From assembly GCA_964587425.1 (NCBI GenBank), contig CAZPLB010000001.1:30545-94544 (forward strand): a stretch of DNA of 64,000 nucleotides, read 5' to 3'. This DNA comes from an uncultured Gammaproteobacteria bacterium. Its GTDB lineage: Bacteria > Patescibacteriota > Microgenomatia > UBA8517. The notes below the pieces were generated by a model. The model saw nothing but the letters and a program-made list of their open reading frames with translations. It did no database searches and was not told the DNA's origin. Shown one piece after another: positions 2,283 through 64,000 of this stretch. The number at the start of each line of letters is the position of its first letter. The first letter of the stretch is position 1. A program made the translations under genes and the position numbers.

Positions 2283-2356
2283 TGGTGGGCCCTGATGGAG
2301 TCGGACCATCCTTTGGTCTTTATAAGAGACCCGTCCTAGCCGATGAACGAAGGGCC
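2283..2356 (-). tRNA. tRNA-like element / possible pseudo-tRNA. It has a 7-bp acceptor stem, a D-arm with GG, a T-arm and an encoded CCA, but the anticodon stem carries only a 6-nt loop (CTTATA).
   Basis: Minus strand reads GGGCCCT-TC-GTTC-ATCGGCTA-GGAC-G-GGTCT-CTTATA-AGACC-AAAG-GATGG-TCCGACT-CCATC-AGGGCCC-A-CCA. This is a GC-rich island inside AT-rich DNA. Confidence 0.45.
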
Positions 2357-2372
2357 CAGATTGCCAATTATA

Positions 2373-6019: not shown

Positions 6020-9000
6020 TTAACACTCAGCATGGCCACAGGAGTAACATTTTGCACAGCCTTCTTCTAATACCAAGCTTGCTTCCCCACAACTGGGACA
6101 AATGTCTTTGTGTGCCTTTTCAAGAAGACTAGGCTGCATGGTTACTTTTGGCACTACATGACCATTGCCTTCTGAGTCTTGGTAACCAATGAAGCCAAAG
6201 TGCATTCCTAGGGCTTTTGCTACAGCATCTGGAAGGCTTCTAACTTTGTTTACTCCAAAGCCAACTGATCCTGCTCCCCCAATTCCTTGGAGTTGTTCCA
6301 TGATTTCTCTAGCTCTTTCTTTTGCCGGGAGGTGATTTCCAAATCTAAGATTAGTTGAAATTAATCTTCCTAAAGCCTCTGCCATGGCTGCAAGTTCACT
6401 GCCTGCTTTTCCTACTGCGCAAAATACTTCAAATGGATTACCATCTTCATCTTGATTTACTGTGATGAAAGCATTGCCCATTGGGGTTTTTATTTTGTAT
6501 GTTGCCCCCTCTACTTTTACTGGGCGTTCTTTAATTGTAACCTCTGGTTTCTTTTCTTCTTCCTTCTTTTCATCAACTTTTGAAAGAACTCCCATGCGGC
6601 TTCCATCTCTAAAGTAAGTTACACCCTTGCAGCCTAGTTCATATGCCAAGGTATAAAGTTTTTTGACGTCATCTACTGTGTGAGAGTTAGGGGCATTGAC
6701 TGTTTTACTAATGGATGAGTCGACATATTCTTGGATTTTTGCCTGGACACGGACGTGCTCTTCTGGAGTTAGTTCACTTGCGCTTACAAAATAGTTAGGT
6801 ACTGTTTCACCTTGGTGCCTGTCCATCCACTCTTGGTAGAGAGGGTGATTAACTATGTGAACTCCAGTTCTGTCTGTTCTTTTGTAACTAAATTCATAAA
6901 CTGGTTCTATCCCAGAGCTTACTCCTGCCAAAAGAGATATAGTTCCAGTTGGAGCTTGGGTCAAGATGACAGCATTCCTAATTCCCTGGTCTGCAATTTT
7001 TTCTTGAATTTCAACAGGAAGTTTTTTGATGAATTGTCCTTGGAGATATTTTTCTTTTACGAATCCACCAAATACTCCTTTTTCTTTAGCGAGGTCGCTT
7101 GAAGTATTGTAGGCAGTATCACGAATGGTTTTGTATATTTTTTCAATTGTGACAAGAGATTCATCGGATCCATATCGAAGACCCATTTTTATTAGAGCGT
7201 CCCCTAACCCAAGCGTTCCAATACCAGTTCTTCTGATGTTCATTTGTGCCTTTTTATTTTCTTCGTAGAAATAATAGTTTGCATCAACTACGTTATCTAG
7301 GAATCGTGTAGCTGTTGCTGTGTGTTCTGCCAGGCTTTCATAATTCATTTGTCCATTTTCAACAAAAGCAGAGAGATTTAAATGGCCGAGGTTACAGACT
7401 CCCCATGCTCCCAATCCTTGCTCTCCACAGTTGTGAACTACAAAACCATTTGCAATGAATGAATGAGTCAATGGCTCTGTTAGATCGTATACCCATTCTT
7501 TTCCGGTAAACTTCAAGTCTTCAAAAGTTACTTGAAATTTCTCTTTGTAAGTACCATCTTTGTAGCCTTTTAGGGCATCAATTAGTTTTGCATTTTTATA
7601 GTCAACTAAGAATCCAATTTCTTTTGCAAATTTCCACAAATTATCTTTTGATATGACAAGATCGTGATATTCTTTGCAGAAATAGTCTTTCCTTCCACCT
7701 TTGCCGTCTGGCATCGAACGGTAACCGGCGTCTCTTCGGTTGCAATATATTTTTGAAGCAACTCCAAAGTTTAAAAGAAGTCTCTGGACATCTTGGAGCA
7801 TGTTGTAACTAACTGAAGTTAGCCTAACACTTACTCCTTTATCTGCTGTGCCTGCAACATGTCCGTCTGCTGTAAATAAAGCTTGTAAGAATCCTTTTTG
7901 CATATCTTCACTACCTGTGAATATTTTTTCTGGGACATTTATTTTATTTCCCGGAGTAATGCCATATTCAGAGACTAGTTTCCAAAGTCTTGTAGACCCT
8001 ACCCTTGCTTCATCTCTTTCGTCAATCCAGCCGACTCCCACTTTGTAATCTCTCTGGTTGATTTGCATTCCATCTACCAAATGGTTTACCATACTCGCAA
8101 ATTTGGGGGCGAGTTGCTGTTTTTCCTGTCCAAAGAAGGAGAGTACAGCTTCTGTTGCTTTCATTGTTCCGTCTCCTACCAACCAGCCTAAAACTTGTCC
8201 AAGTTCTTCGCTGCCAACTTTACCAAACCCTCCTTTTTGGTTTGAAATAAGAACCTTGTTTCCTTTTTTTAGATCCTTTGCTTTTTTCCACCCTTTGTCT
8301 GTCATCACTTGGTGGTCATTTGTAAGTTTTAATTCATATCCTTCTCTTGTTGTTAGTTTGTAAACTTCTTTAAACCCTGTTTTTACTGTTTTTGAACTTT
8401 TTGTCCATGAACCTTTATTAAATCTTCCATCGATTAAAACGTTTGGTTCTATTTTTGAATCAAATAAGTAAGAAGCTCTTAATAGACCATCTTCAGTTGA
8501 AACCAATGTGTCTCCTGTAATACAAGGGTTTGTTGCAATAATTTTTTCGAAGTACCAAGTGTTACTCATTTTGTTGTACCTATCGATAAATACTGCACCT
8601 GGTTCTGCACTTCTCCAAGCTGCTTCACAAATTGAATTCCAGACGTCCTTTGCTTTTACTGTTTTGTAAAGTTTTACTGGATAACCTTTTTCCTTCCATC
8701 CTTTCAAATCACCGTCCCAGACTTCATCATAGTTTTCATGCGTTGTGTCTGGAAATTCCAATTTCCAATCTCCATCTACTTTAACCGCTTCCATAAAGTC
8801 ATCTGATACACAAACTGAAAGATTTGCTCCTGGGATTTTTGTTAAGTCTTGTTTTACTGTTATGAATTCTTCAACATCTGGGTGCCAGTCGTTAAGCATT
8901 AACATGAGGGCTCCACGTCTACTGCCACCTTGTTGGATGACATCGTGGTTGGCTGTTGAATAGAGACTTGCCCAGTTGACAGGACCCGATGATAGGCCAT

Positions 9001-10281: not shown

Positions 10282-10926
10282 CTATCTAAATAGCATTATT
10301 GGCCATTCCCAGAGGACATGAAGAAGGATTGAGGAAGAAATGTTTCTGGTTCTTGAATAGAGATATGTGGAGCCAAGACCGAATACAAATGTTAGAAAAA
10401 TGTAAACAATGGAAGTTGCAAAATTGTATTTCCAAACAAAGATCATTACTGGAACATGGATTACTGTCCAAAGAACGCTAGTTATTATGTTTGATGTGAA
10501 TTCATTTTTAAAAACAAGAGAGAGTCTTGTAAAAATGTAGCCTCTGAAGGTGATCTCTTCCGATATGGCTGTTGCAAAAGAAATTCCAAGCGAGCTAAAA
10601 ATTCCTAGTGTTCCCAGGTTTGCCTGAAAATTAAGGTGGCCATACTTTACAAAATTTGTGACAATGGCCTCAATTGCAAAAAGGGAACCAAGAGCTAGAG
10701 AGAGATATATTGCTGGAAAGAGATTTTTAGTGGTTATACCAAGGTTTTCAAGTTTGAGGTGTCCTCTTTTAAAGAAAAAGAAAGTGGCTCCAAGCCAAAT
10801 TGCCGGCTTTAATACTAACTCCTCTACTTCCTGTGGGAGCTGAAAAAATAATCTATAGAAACCCCATACAACAAAGAGGAAAACAAAAAGACTTATTGAA
10901 TCTTTGAGTGCCCTAACCTTCCCCAT
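10282..10926 (-). CDS. CPBP (CAAX protease/Abi) family intramembrane metalloprotease
   Basis: Multi-TM; signature 'ISEEITFRGYIF' (EExxxR) and downstream His motifs. Confidence 0.8.
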   Translation of the reverse strand: MGKVRALKDSISLFVFLFVVWGFYRLFFQLPQEVEELVLKPAIWLGATFFFFKRGHLKLENLGITTKNLFPAIYLSLALGSLFAIEAIVTNFVKYGHLNFQANLGTLGIFSSLGISFATAISEEITFRGYIFTRLSLVFKNEFTSNIITSVLWTVIHVPVMIFVWKYNFATSIVYIFLTFVFGLGSTYLYSRTRNISSSILLHVLWEWPIMLFR

Positions 10927-54250: not shown

Positions 54251-55252
54251 TTAAGAATCTTTAATCAAACTCCAAGTTGCATACTCCTCAGGGGTTAATG
54301 ATAACTTATGCTTCCCCTTTTTACTCATGGACATTGCAAAGTGCGGTACAAGAATATTTTTTTCATATGATTTTATAATTGCTGGGTGGATGTAGTAGAT
54401 GCGACATACTCTTTTTGTATTTCCTAAGTGGTTTGAAACTTCGGATACAACATCTGTGATATTGGTTTTCATTTCTTTCTCTCCCTCTGCACTTCCTTTT
54501 TTATAGAATGAATCCCCTGCTAGTACACTTGCCCCCCAAGTACGAAAATCTTTGGCTGAGAAATCACCGCCAGTGTGGGTATGCAAATACGCATTTACAT
54601 CTCCTGAATCTACGACCTGTTTTTTGTTGTTTTCATCCATGTATTGGAAAAGTTCGTAACCTGGAAGCTCAATACATTCTTTTATTGTTTTGGCAACTCT
54701 ATTGTTACTTATATCAAGTTCGTGGAAGACTCCACTTTTACCTTCAAAACTAAAGGTTACAGTATTGCCTTTGACACCAATGTGTTTTTCCCGCATGGTA
54801 GTTAGTCCGTATGATTGATTTTCTTTGGCATACTCAACATTTCCTACTCGAATAAAGGTGTGCTCTAAAAGCCAAACTACTGTTGCAATAACTCGGTCAC
54901 AAGTTAGAGCGCGCTCGTGCATATGGGAGTGCACAATGTGGCGAAGAGTTGGGAGACGCTCGCCAAAGGCAATTAATTGATCAAACTTGTCTTCCTGATT
55001 TCTTCTCACCCATTCAATGTGGTAAATGTATTGTTTCCTTCCTTTGGCATCAGTGCCTGTTGCCTGTATGTAGTCCAAGGGATCTGGACTTATCTCCACG
55101 TCTTTCCAAGCAGGAGGGATATTGAGGTCTGAAATTCTTTTTTCTCTCTTTTTTGAAACTTTTTTTCCACTTTTGCTGACAAACACAAAGCCACTATTCT
55201 TTTTAATTCTTCTTACACTTCTACTTTTGTTTCTAAAATGAATTGGCGCCAC
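54251..55252 (-). CDS. DNA topoisomerase IB (poxvirus-like type)
   Basis: 'IPPAW', 'GRKQYIYH', C-terminal 'CRIYYIHP' catalytic Tyr region. Confidence 0.75.
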   Translation of the reverse strand: MAPIHFRNKSRSVRRIKKNSGFVFVSKSGKKVSKKREKRISDLNIPPAWKDVEISPDPLDYIQATGTDAKGRKQYIYHIEWVRRNQEDKFDQLIAFGERLPTLRHIVHSHMHERALTCDRVIATVVWLLEHTFIRVGNVEYAKENQSYGLTTMREKHIGVKGNTVTFSFEGKSGVFHELDISNNRVAKTIKECIELPGYELFQYMDENNKKQVVDSGDVNAYLHTHTGGDFSAKDFRTWGASVLAGDSFYKKGSAEGEKEMKTNITDVVSEVSNHLGNTKRVCRIYYIHPAIIKSYEKNILVPHFAMSMSKKGKHKLSLTPEEYATWSLIKDS

Positions 55253-57385: not shown

Positions 57386-58132
57386 TTGGATTATAATGAA
57401 CTTGTGAGATACACACACAACATCCATGTTTTACGAAAAAAGAAACACATAATAACTTCTTCCATTATCCTCACCCTTTTAATAATCATTCTAATATTAT
57501 TCTTGGGTCTTTCAACTCTTGATATTAATAAATTTTTTATTGGTTTCGCGCAAAGCTTTATTAGAGTCGTTATTTCTTACATCATATCTGTAGTTTTAGC
57601 GATTCTACTTACTCTTTTTGTGACTTCATCACAAAAGATTGAATCAATTTTTCTTCCATTATTTGACGTTTTACAGAGTTTTCCTTCTTTTGCCATGTTT
57701 CCTCTATTATTGGTTTGGTTAGGTAGAGGAAGTACTGTAACAATATTTATTTTGATAATTAGTATGTTATGGCCGATATTATTTACACTAATAACAGCAC
57801 AAAAACAAACAAAACAAGAATTAGTTGAAGTTTCTCACGTTTTTGGGGCGACAGGATTTAAATATTTACGTTATGTGCAAATACCTTTAATGTTTTCGGC
57901 AATCATCACAGGCTCAATTGTGGCCTGGGGAGAAGCATGGGAAGCAATAATTGCCGCCGAAATCATTGCTTCTGTCCCAGGGGTTGGATCGTACTTGGCA
58001 GAGGCAGGAACTGCAGGAAGGGAAAATGTTCTTATTATTGGAATTTTACTTTTAATGCTACTTCTTTTCATAATGAATAAATATGTCTGGCTTCCACTTT
58101 TAAATAAAAGTACCAAATATCAAGGAGAATAA
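57386..58132 (+). CDS. ABC transporter permease (NitT/TauT-type)
   Basis: 6 TM with EAA-like loop. Confidence 0.8.
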   Translation: MDYNELVRYTHNIHVLRKKKHIITSSIILTLLIIILILFLGLSTLDINKFFIGFAQSFIRVVISYIISVVLAILLTLFVTSSQKIESIFLPLFDVLQSFPSFAMFPLLLVWLGRGSTVTIFILIISMLWPILFTLITAQKQTKQELVEVSHVFGATGFKYLRYVQIPLMFSAIITGSIVAWGEAWEAIIAAEIIASVPGVGSYLAEAGTAGRENVLIIGILLLMLLLFIMNKYVWLPLLNKSTKYQGE

Positions 58133-58848
58133 TGTTAACTATAAAAAATCTATCAAAAACGTTTATTTTGGATACAGAGAAAATTGCTGCTTTAAATGAC
58201 GTAAATTTCAACGTAGACAAAGGTGAGTTTTTTACAGTTATTGGTCCATCTGGCTGCGGAAAATCTACACTACTTAGAATTATTGCAAATTTGGATACTC
58301 CAACAAATGGAGAGGTTGTTTGGGAGGAAAAACCAACTATTGGCTTCGTTTTCCAACATTTTGCTCTTTTCCCATATCTTGATGTCTTTGAAAATGTAGA
58401 ATTTGGTTTAAAAATGCAGGGAGTTAAAAAAGATAAAAGAGTAACAATTGTTGATGAACTTCTTGAAGAAGTTGGTTTAACGGAATTTAGAAAAAAACAT
58501 CCGCAAGAATTATCAGGTGGAATGAAACAGAGAGTTGGAATTGCCCGGAGTCTGGCAGTTAGTCCAACCGTACTTCTTTTAGATGAGCCTTTCTCTTCCT
58601 TGGATGAACTTACCGCTGAAAATCTTAGAAATTTATTACTAGATATCTGGGAGAGAAGAAAAATTACAATAATTCTAGTTACACATTTAATACGTGAAGC
58701 CCTACAATTATCAGATAAAATAGCAGTTATGACTCCTGCTCCTGGCAGTATTGAAAGAATTTTGGACAACAATCTTTCTAGACCTAGAAATATGAGATCA
58801 AAAAACTTTTTTGAATTTGAGGACAAACTAAATCTACTACTGAAATAA
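58132..58848 (+). CDS. ABC transporter ATP-binding protein (NitT/TauT-type)
   Basis: 'GPSGCGKST', 'LSGGMKQRV', 'LLLDEPFSSLD'. Confidence 0.9.
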   Translation: MLTIKNLSKTFILDTEKIAALNDVNFNVDKGEFFTVIGPSGCGKSTLLRIIANLDTPTNGEVVWEEKPTIGFVFQHFALFPYLDVFENVEFGLKMQGVKKDKRVTIVDELLEEVGLTEFRKKHPQELSGGMKQRVGIARSLAVSPTVLLLDEPFSSLDELTAENLRNLLLDIWERRKITIILVTHLIREALQLSDKIAVMTPAPGSIERILDNNLSRPRNMRSKNFFEFEDKLNLLLK

Positions 58849-58883
58849 TTTGTTTCGCCTGACCAGAAAAATTAGAACTTATT

Positions 58884-59483
58884 TTATATTAATGAGCCTG
58901 TTTTGACTTCACCAGCACGTTTGAATGAAGCAATTATTACACCACTTGGAGAAGTTTTAGATTCTATTAATTTAAAGGCTTTCGGAATAGTACCACTCTC
59001 GAACAAACGTTTCCCCTTTCCAAGAGTTATGGGGAAAATCTTTAGCCAAAGTTCATCAACTAAATCATTTTTCAGAAGTGTTTGGACTAAATTTCCACTA
59101 CCATAGACTTGCATATCTGGACCACTCTGGCTTTTGAGTTTTTTTAACTCTTCAACTACATTCTCGTTTATGAATACAGAGTTACTCCATTCGTGTTTTT
59201 TAAGCGAGTTTGAAACAACATACTTTGTAGCACTGTTAACTCCATGCCATTCATCTTCATGCTTGGGCCAATATGAAGCAAAAATTTCAAATGTTTTCCT
59301 TCCCAGAAGCAGGCTGAATGGTTCTCTCATCTGCTCTGCCATAATTTTCCCTGCAAAATCGTCAAAGTAAGGAGCAGTCCAGCCCCCATATTTAAAACCA
59401 CCTGAGGCATCTTCTTCTGGACCACCGGGAGCTTGGATGACACCATCAAGGGTTATAAATTCAAGAACATTAATCTTTCTCAT
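58884..59483 (-). CDS. Dihydrofolate reductase family (RibD C-terminal domain) protein
   Basis: 'FITLDGVIQAPGGPEED' pattern. Confidence 0.75.
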   Translation of the reverse strand: MRKINVLEFITLDGVIQAPGGPEEDASGGFKYGGWTAPYFDDFAGKIMAEQMREPFSLLLGRKTFEIFASYWPKHEDEWHGVNSATKYVVSNSLKKHEWSNSVFINENVVEELKKLKSQSGPDMQVYGSGNLVQTLLKNDLVDELWLKIFPITLGKGKRLFESGTIPKAFKLIESKTSPSGVIIASFKRAGEVKTGSLI

Positions 59484-59523
59484 ATTTTAATTATATCAGA
59501 GGTGTGCAGGAAGATTGGCTCCA

Positions 59524-60150
59524 TTAATAACTAATAGTTACAATTTTATTTATTAAATTTTTATTATCAATATTTTTTAATAAAAAATCTGCGACATCGG
59601 CACGAGATATTTTTGAAAATAAACCAATTGGAAGATTTTCTCCCATGTTGTATCTTTCAGTTTTTGAGGTATTTACTAAACGAGCTGGGTGGACAATTGT
59701 CCACTTTAAACTACTTCCTTTAATCAAGTTTTCTTGTTTGGGAATATCTATAAAGAGATTTTTTAACACAGTTCTAAGGATTAATTTTTCAGGTAGAAAT
59801 ATGTTTTCGTTTACTCCAAAGGATGCAACAAAGAGGAGTCTTTCTACTTTGTGCTTCTTCATGGCTGAAATAATGTTTTTAAGCCCATCGGAGACGGTAG
59901 TAATTGGCTTTGAGAAGGCTTGAGAGGTTTTATTTCCTAATACGCTTATCACAACATCTTGACCTTTCACTGCGTTTTCAACGTCTTTTGGATTTAAAAT
60001 ATCTCCCTTCACAACCAAAAGCTTTTTGTTTTCGATCTTTAAGTTAGCAGGGTTTCTAACAAAAGCAGTAATACCATAGCCCATTTTCAACCCTTGATTT
60101 ACTAAATGTACTCCCGTCCCTCCTGTTGCTCCAAAAATAAGAACTTTCAT
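59524..60150 (-). CDS. NAD(P)H-binding (NmrA/BVR-B-like) oxidoreductase
   Basis: 'VLIFGATGGTG' Rossmann motif. Confidence 0.75.
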   Translation of the reverse strand: MKVLIFGATGGTGVHLVNQGLKMGYGITAFVRNPANLKIENKKLLVVKGDILNPKDVENAVKGQDVVISVLGNKTSQAFSKPITTVSDGLKNIISAMKKHKVERLLFVASFGVNENIFLPEKLILRTVLKNLFIDIPKQENLIKGSSLKWTIVHPARLVNTSKTERYNMGENLPIGLFSKISRADVADFLLKNIDNKNLINKIVTISY

Positions 60151-60239
60151 TGTTCTATTGTATCAATAAATTCAAAAACATTTTATATGAAGTACTGGCT
60201 CGCTTACTGGGATGATTTTAGGGCTTATTACCTATATTA

Positions 60240-60848
60240 CTAGCGGACTATTTTTGCTTTTGGCCATCTTTCAGCAATATGTTTATTTTCAACTCTCCAT
60301 TCAAATACTTTCTCAGTAATTCTGTCTCCTTCTATGTTTCTTCTGAAAACCATGTCCAACAAATCATCAATGTCGTAAGGAGCATATATTAATAATTGGT
60401 TGTCATTCTGAAGTCTTATCCCAATGCAAGAACATATCTCTGGCCAGTTATCAATATCTTCTTCTGAAGAATTTAGTGGTTTTCTATCTATTCCTTTCTT
60501 CTCTTTGTACCATTTATGAACAATGGCTGAATTTTTAAAATCCCACTCAACATTGGGTATAGAGTTCTCTAGAAATTGCCTTACTTCTTGTTCTTGTATT
60601 TCTTCTGAGGAGAAATAAACTAAATCAATATCTCTAATAGGTGTCTTACCTGGAGTTCCATGGAGATAATCCCAAACAGAATTTCTTACTATTCCTGCTC
60701 CTATATACCAATTTGGCAAATTTGCAGATCTGGCAATTTCCAAGACGTGCATTAACTGAGTATCTTGGCGAATGATATCAATGAGTTCTTGCTCTCGTCT
60801 CATTGCCGAAATTATAACAGGTTCTATCGTCCTACTCTGGGTAATCAA
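60240..60848 (-). CDS. Nucleotidyltransferase family protein (NTP_transf_6-like)
   Basis: 'WYIGAGIVRNSVWDYLHG...RDIDLVYF'. Confidence 0.55.
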   Translation of the reverse strand: MITQSRTIEPVIISAMRREQELIDIIRQDTQLMHVLEIARSANLPNWYIGAGIVRNSVWDYLHGTPGKTPIRDIDLVYFSSEEIQEQEVRQFLENSIPNVEWDFKNSAIVHKWYKEKKGIDRKPLNSSEEDIDNWPEICSCIGIRLQNDNQLLIYAPYDIDDLLDMVFRRNIEGDRITEKVFEWRVENKHIAERWPKAKIVR

Positions 60849-60937
60849 AAACTGAAGCTAAAAATGACTGGCTCCACCTGGTGGATGAAGTCAGAACTTA
60901 TTTTGCAATTTAAAATATAAATATATAACATTGCACT

Positions 60938-61525
60938 ATGGTGGATAGAAAAATAGGTTTTATAAGTCAACTCGAAGAAATAATGACAGGTCTTCCCTTT
61001 GAAAAATGTACTTTTGTGACTGAATCAATTACTGGAGATAAAGGATGGTATGCCCCAAAAGGTTACGCTTTTAAAATTTCAGGGCAATTTATTCTAGGCT
61101 GTGATCAATCTTTAGGTAATTGGGATGTCGTGATACCTTCTGCAAGTGTAGATTTGTTGAAAGAAAATAACGAAGAACCATCCGAAGAAGTTGGTACTCC
61201 ACCAACAGAATTTACAGGAAAATGGTTGTATATAGATATATATGAACGTGGAGTACAACTCTACGTCAAACAAAATAAAAATTTCTATTTTGAAAATGGA
61301 AAAGGTTGGTTGACTGAAATAGATGGATATTACTTTTCTACACAAGGAGTTCCTGAGATGAACTCAGTTGAATGGGAACAAAATTATGCTCAAGGAATGA
61401 TTGGTTTTTGCAGCATTGAACTTGTCGAGTGTGAAGAACAAGAACCACAGTTATATACACCTTTGGAAAATCATACAGAAGACAGTCTTACGTTACCGAG
61501 TATCTCCAAGAAATATAGTATATAA
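60938..61525 (+). CDS. Hypothetical protein
   Basis: ORF only. Confidence 0.35.
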   Translation: MVDRKIGFISQLEEIMTGLPFEKCTFVTESITGDKGWYAPKGYAFKISGQFILGCDQSLGNWDVVIPSASVDLLKENNEEPSEEVGTPPTEFTGKWLYIDIYERGVQLYVKQNKNFYFENGKGWLTEIDGYYFSTQGVPEMNSVEWEQNYAQGMIGFCSIELVECEEQEPQLYTPLENHTEDSLTLPSISKKYSI

Positions 61526-61526
61526 C

Positions 61527-61788
61527 TGGCTCCCCGGGTAGGATTCGAACCTACGACCTCGATCTTACAGAAATCCTCTTGTTACCAAGAGGGCTGGACT
61601 ATTTCATCATCCTTTTCAGGATGTCGGGTATATAGTCTCTACACATTTACCAAGATATCTTGGATTTAGCTCGAGATTGTCCTTTTTTTGAAAGGAGTTC
61701 CTCGAATTAGCCCAATTTTCATCCTGGTGTTACCACCAAGAGCTGCCTTACTCAACAGGATCTCGCGCTACCGCTGCGCCACCGGGGA
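61527..61788 (-). tRNA. tRNA-Asn(GUU) gene split by a ~187-nt intron within the anticodon (exons approx. 61755-61788 and 61527-61567)
   Basis: Spliced product reads TCCCCGG-TG-GCGC-AGCGGTA-GCGC-G-AGATC-CTGTTAA-GATCG-AGGTC-GTAGG-TTCGAAT-CCTAC-CCGGGGA-G-CCA. Loop CUGUUAA matches bacterial tRNA-Asn. One A27:G43 mismatch. Confidence 0.6.
61568..61754 (-). ncRNA. Putative self-splicing group I-like intron in tRNA-Asn
   Basis: U preceding the 5' splice site can pair as U:G with intron 'GCAG' (P1-like). The intron ends in G. There are two GNRA (GTAA) hairpins, TTGGTG/CACCAG and CCTCTTG/CAAGAGG, plus a CCAAG-ATAT-CTTGG hairpin. Confidence 0.4.
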
Positions 61789-61827
61789 ATGTATGTAAAG
61801 GAACAAGGCTATTATACCAATTGGAGT

Positions 61828-62910
61828 CTAGATATCCAAGTAGGCTTGAAGGATTTTTCTCCTTGAAGGGTGTTTTAATTTTCTGAGTGCTTTTGCCTCA
61901 ATTTGTCTTATGCGTTCTCTTGTTACACCAAATATCTTACCAACATCTTCTAAGGTGTGTGGCTGGTCTCCTTTGAGGCCAAATCTAAGTCCTAGAACTT
62001 TTGCTTCTCTTTCTGAAAGAGTTGAAAGGAGTTCTCCAAGGTCATCTCTTAATAATTCTTTTGATGCTTGGTCAACTGGTGAGAGAACTTTGTCATCTTC
62101 TATAAAATCACCTAATTGGCTGTCATCTTCCTCCCCTACTGGCTTTTGAAGAGATGTGGTTTCTTGCGAGATTTTAAATATTTCTCTTACTCTGTCTCCA
62201 GTAATCCCTAACTCATCCCCAATTTGTTCTGGAGTTGGTTCGTGACCCAATTCCTGCATTAATCTCTGGCTGGTTCTATAAATTTTATTTATGGTCTCAA
62301 CCATGTGGACCGGGATCCTGATGGTCCTTGCCTGGTCTGCTATGGCTCTAGTTATGGCCTGCCTAATCCACCAGGTTGCATATGTAGAAAATTTGAAGCC
62401 TCTTCTCCAATCATATTTTTCAACTGCGCGAATAAGTCCTTGGTTTCCTTCTTGGATTAGATCAAGGAGTGAGAGACCTCGACCAATGTACTTTTTTGCA
62501 ATTGAAACAACTAACCTCAAGTTTGACTGGGTCAGTTTGTCTTTTGCTCTTTTTTCTTTTTTCTCAAATCTCTTGGCGAGCTCTATTTCTTCTTCAGCAT
62601 CCAATAGCGGGAACTTGCCAATCTCCCTTAGGTATTGCCTTACGGGGTCTGTTGACTCGGCACTTCCTTCTAATTTTGAAAGGAGTTCTATTTGGCGCTC
62701 TATATCTTCATCTGGGGAAACTCCATCTTCTTCATCTTCACCAACGGACTCAAAAACATCAATTCCCTCTTCCAAAAGTTTGGCATATAGTTCATCTAAT
62801 TCTGTGAGTCTTGTTTCAGCATCTGTGAAGACTTCAAGTATTTCATCTTGAGTTAGAAAGCCTTGGTCTTTGCCCTTTTTGATTAGTTCAAGGGTAATAT
62901 TTCGAAGCAT
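61828..62910 (-). CDS. rpoD: RNA polymerase sigma-70 factor RpoD
   Basis: Regions 1.2-4 with '[30 protein letters not shown]'. Confidence 0.95.
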
Positions 62911-62925
62911 GCCCCAATTATACGA

Positions 62926-64000
62926 CTAAATCTTCATTTTTGAAATGGCCTCAAGTTTTTGGCTTAATTTGGTGAATTCGAGCTTGACTGAACGCTTCCC
63001 TATTTGAGGCGAGAGGGCTGCCATTTTTTCTCTAATATCTAAAGATTGGAGCTCGTGCATTGTTTCATTTATTTCATCTTTTGATACTTCCTCTATTGAA
63101 TTACTTAATATTATTTCAGCCAATTTTTCTTTTAATTCCTGGGGTAAATCTTCAACATTCTCAAATTCAAGAACCTTCTTAAGAAATGAGTTTTTGATTA
63201 ATTCCCTTACTTTTGGATCTACCATTAACTTTTTTTCTTTGGCAAAAATTAAACCTATTAATCTTTCTTCAAGAAGGGTTCTTCTCCCTCTTTTTTCTTC
63301 AATTACCTCTTTTACTTCTTGTTTTCCATCCACTCTTTCTCTTTTTTTCTCTACTTCCTCCTCAACTGCTGTCTCATCAACATCGAGGATTCGAGCAAGC
63401 TTTTTAATATAGTGGGCTTCTATAATTTTGTCTTGAATGGTTCCAAGAATGGGAGTTAGTTCCCTACTTATTTTTGCTTTACCACCACCTGTAGATTTAT
63501 CGTACTTTGCGACTATTGAATCTATTATAAAGTCCCAAACTGGGACAGCATCTTGAAGGGCACTTTGGTAGAACTTTGAATCTGCCCTTGAGGCTTCATC
63601 TGGATCCTTGAATCTTCCAAACTTGGCAACTTTTGTTTCAACTCCAGCGTTTTCAAGAATTGAAATACCTCGAAGAGTTGCCTGGCCTCCTGCAAAATCT
63701 GAGTCGAGGGCTAGAATCACTTCTTTTGTGAAACGGCTTAAAAGTGAAACTTGCTCTTCGGTAACTGCAGAACCCTTGATTGCGACTACATTTTTTACAC
63801 CATTTTGATATGACGAAATGAGGTCTAGTTCGCCTTCAACAACAATTGCCTTACCTTCTTTTTTGATAAAATCCTTGGTTATGTTAAGTCCATAAAGTGA
63901 CTGACTTTTGTGATAAATGGGTGTTTCTGGGGAATTTATATACTTACCAACGTTTTTCTTTTCTGGGGGCAGTAGTCTTCCGGCGAGTGCTACCACTTGT
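62926..64000 (-). CDS. dnaG: DNA primase DnaG, C-terminal portion (gene continues beyond window end)
   Basis: TOPRIM 'VVEGELDLIS' then DnaB-binding C-terminal domain; N-terminus off-window. Confidence 0.8.
   Translation of the reverse strand, partial: QVVALAGRLLPPEKKNVGKYINSPETPIYHKSQSLYGLNITKDFIKKEGKAIVVEGELDLISSYQNGVKNVVAIKGSAVTEEQVSLLSRFTKEVILALDSDFAGGQATLRGISILENAGVETKVAKFGRFKDPDEASRADSKFYQSALQDAVPVWDFIIDSIVAKYDKSTGGGKAKISRELTPILGTIQDKIIEAHYIKKLARILDVDETAVEEEVEKKRERVDGKQEVKEVIEEKRGRRTLLEERLIGLIFAKEKKLMVDPKVRELIKNSFLKKVLEFENVEDLPQELKEKLAEIILSNSIEEVSKDEINETMHELQSLDIREKMAALSPQIGKRSVKLEFTKLSQKLEAISKMKI

Follow-up and report, generated by a model that had tools for sequence, protein, structure and literature searches.

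The window analysed here is a stretch of 64,000 nucleotides with a G+C content of about 37%, part of a bacterial chromosome, in which dnaG, rpoD, and a split tRNA gene follow one another in that order on the minus strand. The dnaG gene (62926-63996; Pfam Toprim/DnaB_bind) is cut by the window end, rpoD/sigA (61828-62910) codes for a 360-residue protein with Pfam Sigma70 regions r1.1-r4, and 39 nt downstream of rpoD lies a split pre-tRNA-Asn(GUU) (61788-61527), made up of exons of 34 nt (5′) and 41 nt (3′) on either side of a 187-nt intron. The original prediction for this locus gave the coordinates 61527-61788, which are exact, and left the strand unstated; it is the minus strand. A consensus scan also identified a promoter-like site at 61811-61838 (minus strand)—a −35 element TGGATA, a 16-nt spacer, and a TG-extended −10 element TATAAT—that overlaps the end of rpoD and stops 22 nt short of tRNA position 1. 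It has 10 of 12 consensus matches plus the TG, although with one such site found and 1.2 expected in the region it carries no statistical weight.

The 5′ exon (61788-61755; 34 nt, minus strand) has the sequence UCCCCGGUGGCGCAGCGGUAGCGCGAGAUCCUGU and covers tRNA positions 1-35 in 34 nt, with a D loop of 7 nt and U35 as its last base; by element it reads UCCCCGG-UG-GCGC-AGCGGUA-GCGC-G-AGAUC-CUGU. The 3′ exon (61567-61527; 41 nt, minus strand) has the sequence UAAGAUCGAGGUCGUAGGUUCGAAUCCUACCCGGGGAGCCA and covers positions 36-73 plus CCA, reading UAA-GAUCG-AGGUC-GUAGG-UUCGAAU-CCUAC-CCGGGGA-G-CCA by element. When joined, the exons give a 75-nt product that is called by ARAGORN as tRNA-Asn(gtt), with an acceptor stem of seven perfectly matched pairs, D and T stems of 4 and 5 bp, the T loop UUCGAAU, the anticodon loop CUGUUAA, discriminator G73, and a CCA encoded at 61529-61527. 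The two tRNA halves that were originally proposed, with their 7-bp acceptor, D- and T-arms, and CCA, are thus all present, and the estimate of about 187 nt between them proves to be exact (187 nt, 61754-61568); the proposed U|...G| join is also the one that yields CUGUUAA and the ARAGORN tRNA-Asn call. In the intact DNA, however, the split gene is missed both by ARAGORN with default settings and by the tRNA model of Rfam, and the intron mode of ARAGORN reports it as a tRNA-Leu(aag).

The isotype was examined by global alignment of the spliced tRNA with 108 intron-less tRNAs from all of the fetched loci. tRNA-Asn genes account for all of the best 12 matches (74-81% identity), and other isotypes reach no more than 68%; a blastn-short comparison with the intron-less tRNAs returned partial alignments only, with none at 75% coverage. 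The spliced tRNA has U1-A72 and G73, as do the intron-less tRNA-Asn genes of relatives, and the three tRNA-Thr genes compared have G1-C72 and U73. Its D stem is GCGC/GCGC as against GCUC/GAGC in the relatives, a compensated pair which argues that the tRNA fold is maintained and not decaying, and the 27:43 mismatch is common to split and intact tRNA-Asn genes. No other tRNA-Asn was found by ARAGORN in the 64-kb window.

The whole window was scanned against Rfam at gathering thresholds and gave one match only, to Intron_gpI (RF00028). It lies on the minus strand at 61764-61575, spans model positions 1-253 of 253, and scores 83.6 bits (gathering score 50; E = 8.5e-20), far outside what chance would produce; the covariance-model scan suggested in the original prediction as a check therefore returns a full-length group I match. 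The intron (61754-61568) scores 210 bits with its own covariance model (R1, described below), and its minimum free energy (MFE) when folded alone lies at z = −4.9 relative to dinucleotide shuffles. Without any constraints, this MFE structure already contains P2, P4, P5, P6a, P8, and P9, and in the structure drawn by hand—P1, P2, P3, P4, P5, P6/P6a, P7, P8, and P9—56 of 56 pairs are standard in the window. The longest open reading frame in an ORF scan of the intron is 22 amino acids, and it thus contains no homing endonuclease.

P1 (61758-61743) is formed by C32-U35 together with the first intron nucleotide (61758-61754) and the guide GGCAG (61747-61743); all five of its pairs are standard in the window, its loop is GAGUAA, and its U35.G wobble marks the 5′ splice site. 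The GCAG guide (61746-61743) pairing with C32-U35 had been recognised from the outset. P2 is an 8-bp hairpin at 61741-61722 that was recovered in the MFE fold and is capped by a GNRA tetraloop, L2, with the sequence GUAA (61733-61730). The 5′ strand of P3, UUGGG (61715-61711), pairs with CCCGA (61628-61624), for which the evidence is covariation, and between them are P4 (61705-61700 with 61676-61671) enclosing P5 (61696-61691 with 61685-61680), a domain at 61705-61671 seen in the MFE fold with GAA as J4/5 and CAAU as J5/4, and the element at 61670-61643, where a 2-bp P6 and the P6a hairpin (61663-61659 with 61654-61650) are indicated by the drawn pairs, covariation, and MFE.

The 5′ strand of P7 (61639-61633) is a G, a bulged A, and GACUA, and it pairs with UAGUCC (61601-61596) through six of six standard pairs, with J8/7 (AUGAAA) directly before the 3′ strand; P7 and P3 together make a pseudoknot, and P7 is where guanosine is expected to bind. 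J7/3 is the 4-nt UAUA, with no hairpin between P7 and the 3′ strand of P3 (P3′) in the window. P8 is a 6-bp hairpin with a GAAA loop (61623-61608; MFE and covariation), and P9 is a 7-bp MFE hairpin (61592-61575) closed by the second GNRA tetraloop, L9, also GUAA (61585-61582); a terminator reported at 61592-61575 by a simple terminator scan is this same helix and was rejected as such. The intron ends in C-U-G (61570-61568), which comprises the P9.0 strand opposite A-G of J7/9 (61595-61594) and the omega-G at 61568, the last intron base. L2, L9, and this base account for the two GUAA hairpins and the terminal G of the original prediction. P7.1/P7.2 is absent from the window intron, and the peripheral elements are small. 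No convincing P10 pairing was seen in the window, where the 3′ exon UAA gives one U.G at most against the P1 loop GAGUAA; with a P1 of only 5 bp and no clear P10, the 3′ exon may need the anticodon stem or a cofactor for its alignment.

When the eight positions at which the anticodon loop could be spliced were enumerated, only 35/36 was seen to combine U(−1) with G(omega); splicing at 36/37 would end the intron in U, and splicing at 33/34 would end it in C and generate a Thr-like UGU anticodon. The junction had originally been left ambiguous by one U, an ambiguity that is resolved to 35/36 by this combination, by the intron starts of relatives, and by P9.0. The introns of loci L001, L003, L005, and L010 start with A or G and not with U, and in these the U-U ambiguity is therefore absent and only 35/36 is left. 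Across the relatives, an intron start of A, C, or G removes it. P9.0 is formed (both pairs) in 99% of 102 family introns, and its inner (second) pair covaries, with CG in 53, AU in 28, GC in 10, and UA in 7. Shuffled controls are paired in 46% and controls slid by one in 12%, and because these values were computed without the covariance-model alignment, they are independent of it. The P9.0 covariation fixes the omega-G at 61568.

Metagenome relatives were collected with a pattern made up of the P7 3′ strand (for which ATAGTCC was required), the omega-G, U36-A38, and the T arm. There are at least 120 matches, and those listed yielded 96 full precursors, a full precursor being one in which 7/7 acceptor pairs form and the order is CUGU|intron...G|UAA. 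The introns among the matches listed are between 178 and 898 nt long, and L102 (178 nt), L169 (179 nt), and L129 (180 nt) are shorter than the 187 nt of the window intron. The nearest intron among those found is that of L102, which is 75% identical (the exons are 87.5% identical), and the window copy is thus a distinct member of the family. Twenty-two of the introns are 425-898 nt long, and most of these carry, on the intron strand, an ORF of about 105-170 amino acids in which CxxC...HH...CANCH motifs occur; one representative scores above the Pfam HNH threshold (PF01844) and another is sub-threshold. LAGLIDADG proteins are present in the introns of L084 (PF03161, E = 1.6e-25) and L152 (PF14528).

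A covariance model was built from the introns of the window, L102, and L169 using our own structure, with P7 left out as a pseudoknot. It finds 85 matches in 90 sources, including just one match in the window, and it recovers the split tRNA-Asn introns of L001, L003, L005, L008, L010, and L015 at 63-95 bits. Covariation was scored across 84 distinct homologues with P7 added back, amounting to 56 pairs and 3786 cells. Standard pairs occupy 92.0% of the P1-P9 cells; with the 3′ partners displaced by 1-3 columns the figure is 36-47%. The pair counts are biased toward the drawn structure since the alignment was fitted to the own-structure model, whereas P9.0 and the MFE fold are independent of it. 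Changes on both sides are seen in 46 of the 56 pairs, and none of 500 column shuffles reaches any of the five measures used.

The compensatory changes are spread over most of the helices: 8/8 pairs in P2, 5/5 in P3 (with 95% of cells paired), 5/6 in P4 (98.7% paired), 5/6 in P5, 6/6 in P8, and 6/7 in P9, with P6a also covarying in the family alignment. P7 is nearly invariant in the family, as are the four exon pairs of P1, which are conserved in the 84 sequences and include UG at the splice-site pair in 74 of them; these elements are uninformative on covariation, and their invariance arises in part from how homologues were selected, the search pattern having required ATAGTCC in the case of P7. 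The fifth pair of P1, involving intron nucleotide 1, does covary (AU 23, CG 22, GC 16, UA 5, GU 4, UG 4). GNRA tetraloops are present at L2 in about 80 of the 85 homologues and at L9 in 83 of 85, and 63 of the 85 aligned members resemble the window intron in having no hairpin between P7 and P3′.

A strict form of the 11-nt receptor, CCUAA[AG]...UAUGG, occurs in P8 of seven of the 85 introns, all with GAAA at L2 (Fisher p = 0.012), a suggestive but weak sign of a link between the L2 tetraloop and a P8 receptor in the family. Such a contact was discarded for the window copy, which has GUAA at L2 and a plain P8.

The Rfam model, the splice-site enumeration, the isotype, the covariation in 85 homologues, and P9.0 all agree on the group I reading put forward in the original prediction, and judged from these sequence comparisons the locus contains a real group I intron that is very probably functional.

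The host was placed using SigA. The best matches listed among species-representative genomes range from 57 to 77% identity, and the closest are metagenome-assembled genomes (MAGs) at 66-77% that have generic or clearly mistaken labels; at 64% and below, the matches listed include Candidatus Gottesmanbacteria, Levybacteria, Shapirobacteria, Roizmanbacteria, and 'Patescibacteria group'. As the SigA relatives are MAGs of Patescibacteria, this one marker protein points to a Patescibacteria (Microgenomates-like) bacterium as the host. A phage origin was rejected, because a megablast search of 58000-64000 against a phage collection gave no match and the neighbouring genes (dnaG, rpoD, and an ABC transporter) are chromosomal.

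Split and intact alleles alternate among close relatives at the syntenic locus after rpoD. An intact tRNA-Asn(GTT) follows rpoD in L002, L007, L009, L012, and L025, and a group I intron above the Rfam gathering score is found there in L001, L003, L005, L008, L010, and L015; in all six of the split relatives the U35|...G|U36 join generates a tRNA-Asn(gtt). In the metagenome set rpoD is within reach at nine of at least 120 loci, and the synteny is therefore either limited to this lineage or hidden by short contigs. The presence of both alleles among relatives, together with the HNH and LAGLIDADG proteins of longer homologues, suggests that the intron arrived by homing and that an endonuclease was later lost or was never present in this copy.

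Introns of this kind have been described. Williams 2020 (bioRxiv 10.1101/2020.01.27.920355) expanded the classes of bacterial tRNA group I introns from 4 to 21, and one of its classes, Asn.4Ug—tRNA-Asn with insertion at 35/36, U(−1), and G(omega)—is cited in a recent survey of complete genomes (Nakagawa et al., mSystems 2026, PMC13011429). That survey reports 333 tRNA introns in 4,934 complete genomes, of which 28 are at 35/36 and 19 of those in Patescibacteria; among 95 complete Patescibacteria genomes there are 15 tRNA-Asn(GUU) genes with 35/36 introns (PMC13011429). Bacterial tRNA intron lengths are given as 184-894 nt with a mean of 257, endonuclease genes are absent from most introns (HNH is present in four tRNA-Asn introns), and 25 of the 28 introns at 35/36 are assigned to subgroup IA, with no IC in Patescibacteria (PMC13011429). 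A tRNA-Asn intron of Patescibacteria self-splices at 35/36 in vitro (PMC13011429).

The window intron shares with Asn.4Ug the phylum, the tRNA-Asn(GUU) host, and the U35|U36 site with U(−1)/G(omega). It has no homing endonuclease, which is also true of most members, standard tRNA finders miss or miscall it in the same way, and a covariance model shows it to be homologous to the introns that split tRNA-Asn in MAGs of Patescibacteria. It differs in that its 187 nt are at the short end of the 184-894 nt range, and in having no P7-P3′ hairpin, which is present in some relatives (L005, L008, L010, and L015). Both an Asn host and this small size had been thought unusual in the original prediction. 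With the class listed, as far as the citation of Williams 2020 conveys, 15 such genes counted in PMC13011429, and lengths of 184-894 nt there and 178-898 nt among our metagenome matches listed, neither the Asn host nor 187 nt is unusual. The window intron is a further example of a known and experimentally validated class, although its sequence is itself distinct.

Two other well-known systems offer comparisons. Reinhold-Hurek and Shub are said to have described in 1992 a 205-nt group I intron of subgroup IC3 in the tRNA-Ile(CAU) of Azoarcus sp. BH72. The window intron resembles it in being compact, ORF-less, and inserted in an anticodon loop, in having GNRA-capped P2 and P9, and in its simple P4-P5-P6 domain that lacks P5abc and P7.1/P7.2; it differs in being located at 35/36 of a tRNA-Asn and not at 36/37 of an Ile2 tRNA in a proteobacterium, and is 18 nt shorter. 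The cyanobacterial and plastid tRNA-Leu(UAA) intron, an IC3 intron inserted at 34/35, likewise interrupts an anticodon loop and is a self-splicing group I intron; its 5′ splice site has U.G and its exons are brought together by the anticodon stem, but it is found in a different tRNA, site, and lineage, and is typically about 250 nt long.

The window intron matches none of the four classical IC3 combinations (tRNA-Leu 34/35, Ile2 and Arg 36/37, and fMet 33/34). Its J7/3 anatomy looks IC3-like rather than classical IA, as a description of anatomy and not a formal classification. The introns of the window, L102, L169, L129, L111, and L114 are all 178-202 nt in length and have UAUA as J7/3, no P7.1/P7.2, and a plain-helix P8. 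It is conceivable, though we would put it well short of an even chance, that these six constitute a distinct compact sub-lineage of IC3-like character, as opposed to the published picture of IA introns and no IC in this phylum.

The pathway that we propose for this locus follows that of other group I introns. Transcription would start at the gene's own TG-extended −10 promoter or proceed as read-through from dnaG-rpoD, and the intron would fold into the canonical P1-P9 core, in which C32-U35 would pair with the guide GCAG so that the 5′ splice site is marked by the U35.G wobble. P7 would bind an exogenous guanosine, which would attack after U35; the omega-G (61568), positioned by the 2-bp P9.0, would then take the place of this guanosine in P7, and the free 3′-OH of U35 would attack after the omega-G to ligate the exons and create the loop CUGUUAA. 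RNase P would remove the 5′ leader, and the CCA is already encoded. In the Anabaena tRNA-Leu intron the anticodon stem is reported to help exon alignment, and it probably has the same part here. The sequence analysis establishes which family the intron belongs to, its exact boundaries, the identity of the tRNA, and a conserved, covarying fold; by homology to the Patescibacteria tRNA-Asn intron examined in vitro, we infer that this copy splices, and does so without the help of proteins.

We hold with considerable confidence that the tRNA-Asn(GUU) gene at this locus is functional, that it belongs to a Patescibacteria (Microgenomates-like) bacterium, and that it carries a 187-nt endonuclease-free group I intron between positions 35 and 36. 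The alternative that fares best, and which we regard as unlikely, is that so reduced an intron is not autonomous in vivo, either needing a protein chaperone or cofactor, or splicing slowly and so acting as a brake on tRNA-Asn supply. The small peripheral elements, the absence of P7.1/P7.2, the short P1, and the weak P10 are all in keeping with this; yet the conserved GNRA loops of L2 and L9 are typically tertiary-stabilising, and compact group I introns can self-splice efficiently, as does the 205-nt Azoarcus tRNA-Ile intron. A regulatory role for such introns was raised as speculation by Nakagawa et al. (PMC13011429), whose data also show related Patescibacteria tRNA-Asn introns self-splicing in vitro within minutes to an hour.

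Considerably less probable is that the locus is a decayed copy, a pseudogene in which the intron no longer splices, with Asn decoded by a gene elsewhere. In its favour, the view of tRNA-Asn genes here covers 64 kb of the genome, and the intron is at the short end of its family and without a clear P10. Against this, the core helices are all whole, Rfam matches the intron over its entire model with a score well over the threshold, the U.G wobble is present along with omega-G and P9.0, and the cloverleaf is perfect, with its compensated D-stem change and encoded CCA. The notion of other boundaries and another host, either a tRNA-Thr(UGU) with the intron at 33/34 or a tRNA-Leu(AAG), has a negligible chance of being correct: it draws on the ARAGORN -i calls of tRNA-Leu(aag) i(33,176) for the window precursor and tRNA-Thr(agt) for the closest relative, L001, and on the UGU anticodon that splicing at 31/32-33/34 creates and ARAGORN accepts as Thr, but these boundaries put C or U at omega (and for two of them C at −1), they conflict with the omega-G set by P9.0 covariation, the tRNA body is Asn in overall identity, U1-A72, and G73, and the same ARAGORN/tFind miscall has been documented and experimentally corrected for this intron class (PMC13011429).

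The functional, intron-containing tRNA-Asn(GUU) gene that we favour opens no new question by itself and has modest upside only; its practical consequence is chiefly for the annotation of tRNA-Asn. Because such a gene is missed or miscalled by standard tools, the genome would wrongly seem to be without a tRNA-Asn and would be scored as less complete, a source of underscoring in Patescibacteria that was raised by Nakagawa et al. (PMC13011429). For the intron family, the locus adds a very compact, endonuclease-free example to a class known to self-splice, and members of 178-190 nt could be minimal natural ribozymes for structural and folding studies. If the compact sub-lineage were real and its members self-spliced free of protein, these would count as natural group I ribozymes that are shorter than the 205-nt intron of Azoarcus, and the sub-lineage would possibly represent the first IC-type tRNA introns in Patescibacteria.

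Two contigs carry a second group I intron beside an intron-split tRNA-Asn(GUU) gene. One metagenome contig, L169, has two split tRNA-Asn(GUU) genes, at 7460-7647 (+) and 10425-10627 (-), which are separated by about 3 kb, oppositely oriented and interrupted by compact, related introns of 179 and 194 nt; the second of these genes was miscalled by ARAGORN as tRNA-Thr(tgt). The other is a Patescibacteria MAG contig, L010, in which a split tRNA-Asn follows rpoD and a second group I intron lies at 7204-7415 (-). Judged by eye, the host of this second intron looks like a tRNA-fMet(CAU) interrupted at site 33/34, and the intron scores 86.5 bits with the covariance model built from tRNA-Asn introns; the intron family therefore crosses host tRNAs.

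Some longer introns at the 35/36 site of tRNA-Asn carry endonuclease or endonuclease-like ORFs of more than one type. The 898-nt intron of Ga0163155_10000242 (L084) contains a LAGLIDADG endonuclease ORF (PF03161, E 1.6e-25), as does the 686-nt intron of Ga0136623_10005257 (L152; PF14528, E 2.2e-5); small HNH-like ORFs with CxxC...HH...CANCH motifs are found in roughly 18 more of the long introns, 500-620 nt in size, among the metagenome matches listed. The endonuclease genes reported in tRNA-Asn introns by Nakagawa et al. (PMC13011429) are HNH only.

At the split tRNA of the window, a promoter-like site is present at 61811-61838 (-), with a -35 TGGATA, a 16-nt spacer and a TG-extended -10 TATAAT. 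It overlaps the final codons and the stop codon of rpoD and ends 22 nt before the split tRNA, which may be transcribed from its own promoter instead of by read-through from dnaG-rpoD. A simple terminator scan also flagged the P9 hairpin of the intron (61575-61592, -) together with the UUUCUGU that follows it as terminator-like. Pausing or termination of RNA polymerase at P9, if real, would cut the precursor short immediately ahead of the 3' splice site; the flag is probably a mere pattern match.

Two other features of the window were recorded. ARAGORN calls a tRNA-Ile(TAT) at 2283-2357 (-). Its 7-bp acceptor stem is perfect, CCA is encoded after A73, the loop reads CUUAUAA, and the cloverleaf is also the MFE fold (z = -3.4). 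Its T loop is UCCGACU, with C in place of the expected U55, and it has no match with the Rfam tRNA model even at E <= 1; it could represent either a tRNA-like element or a tRNA-Ile2(UAU) of atypical form that decodes AUA. An ORF at 54251-55252 (-) has the catalytic core of type IB topoisomerases together with the N-terminal domain of bacterial TopIB (Pfam PF01028, PF21338).

All seven split tRNA-Asn genes have a mismatch at 27:43 in the anticodon stem (61762 and 61555 in the window), as A-G, G-A, C-U or A-A. A C-U mismatch is also present in the two intron-less tRNA-Asn genes inspected by eye (L007 and L009), and the mismatch appears to be a lineage feature that is independent of the intron.

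Among the rpoD-region loci, several from genomes outside the Patescibacteria (L068, L020, L044, L045, L034, L017, L022 and L037) have a tRNA-Asn gene with no intron downstream of rpoD, no more than a few kb away and in some cases close behind it (Sporomusa, Thermoleophilia, Atribacterota, Peptococcaceae and others). The rpoD-tRNA-Asn neighbourhood is thus older and wider than the intron.
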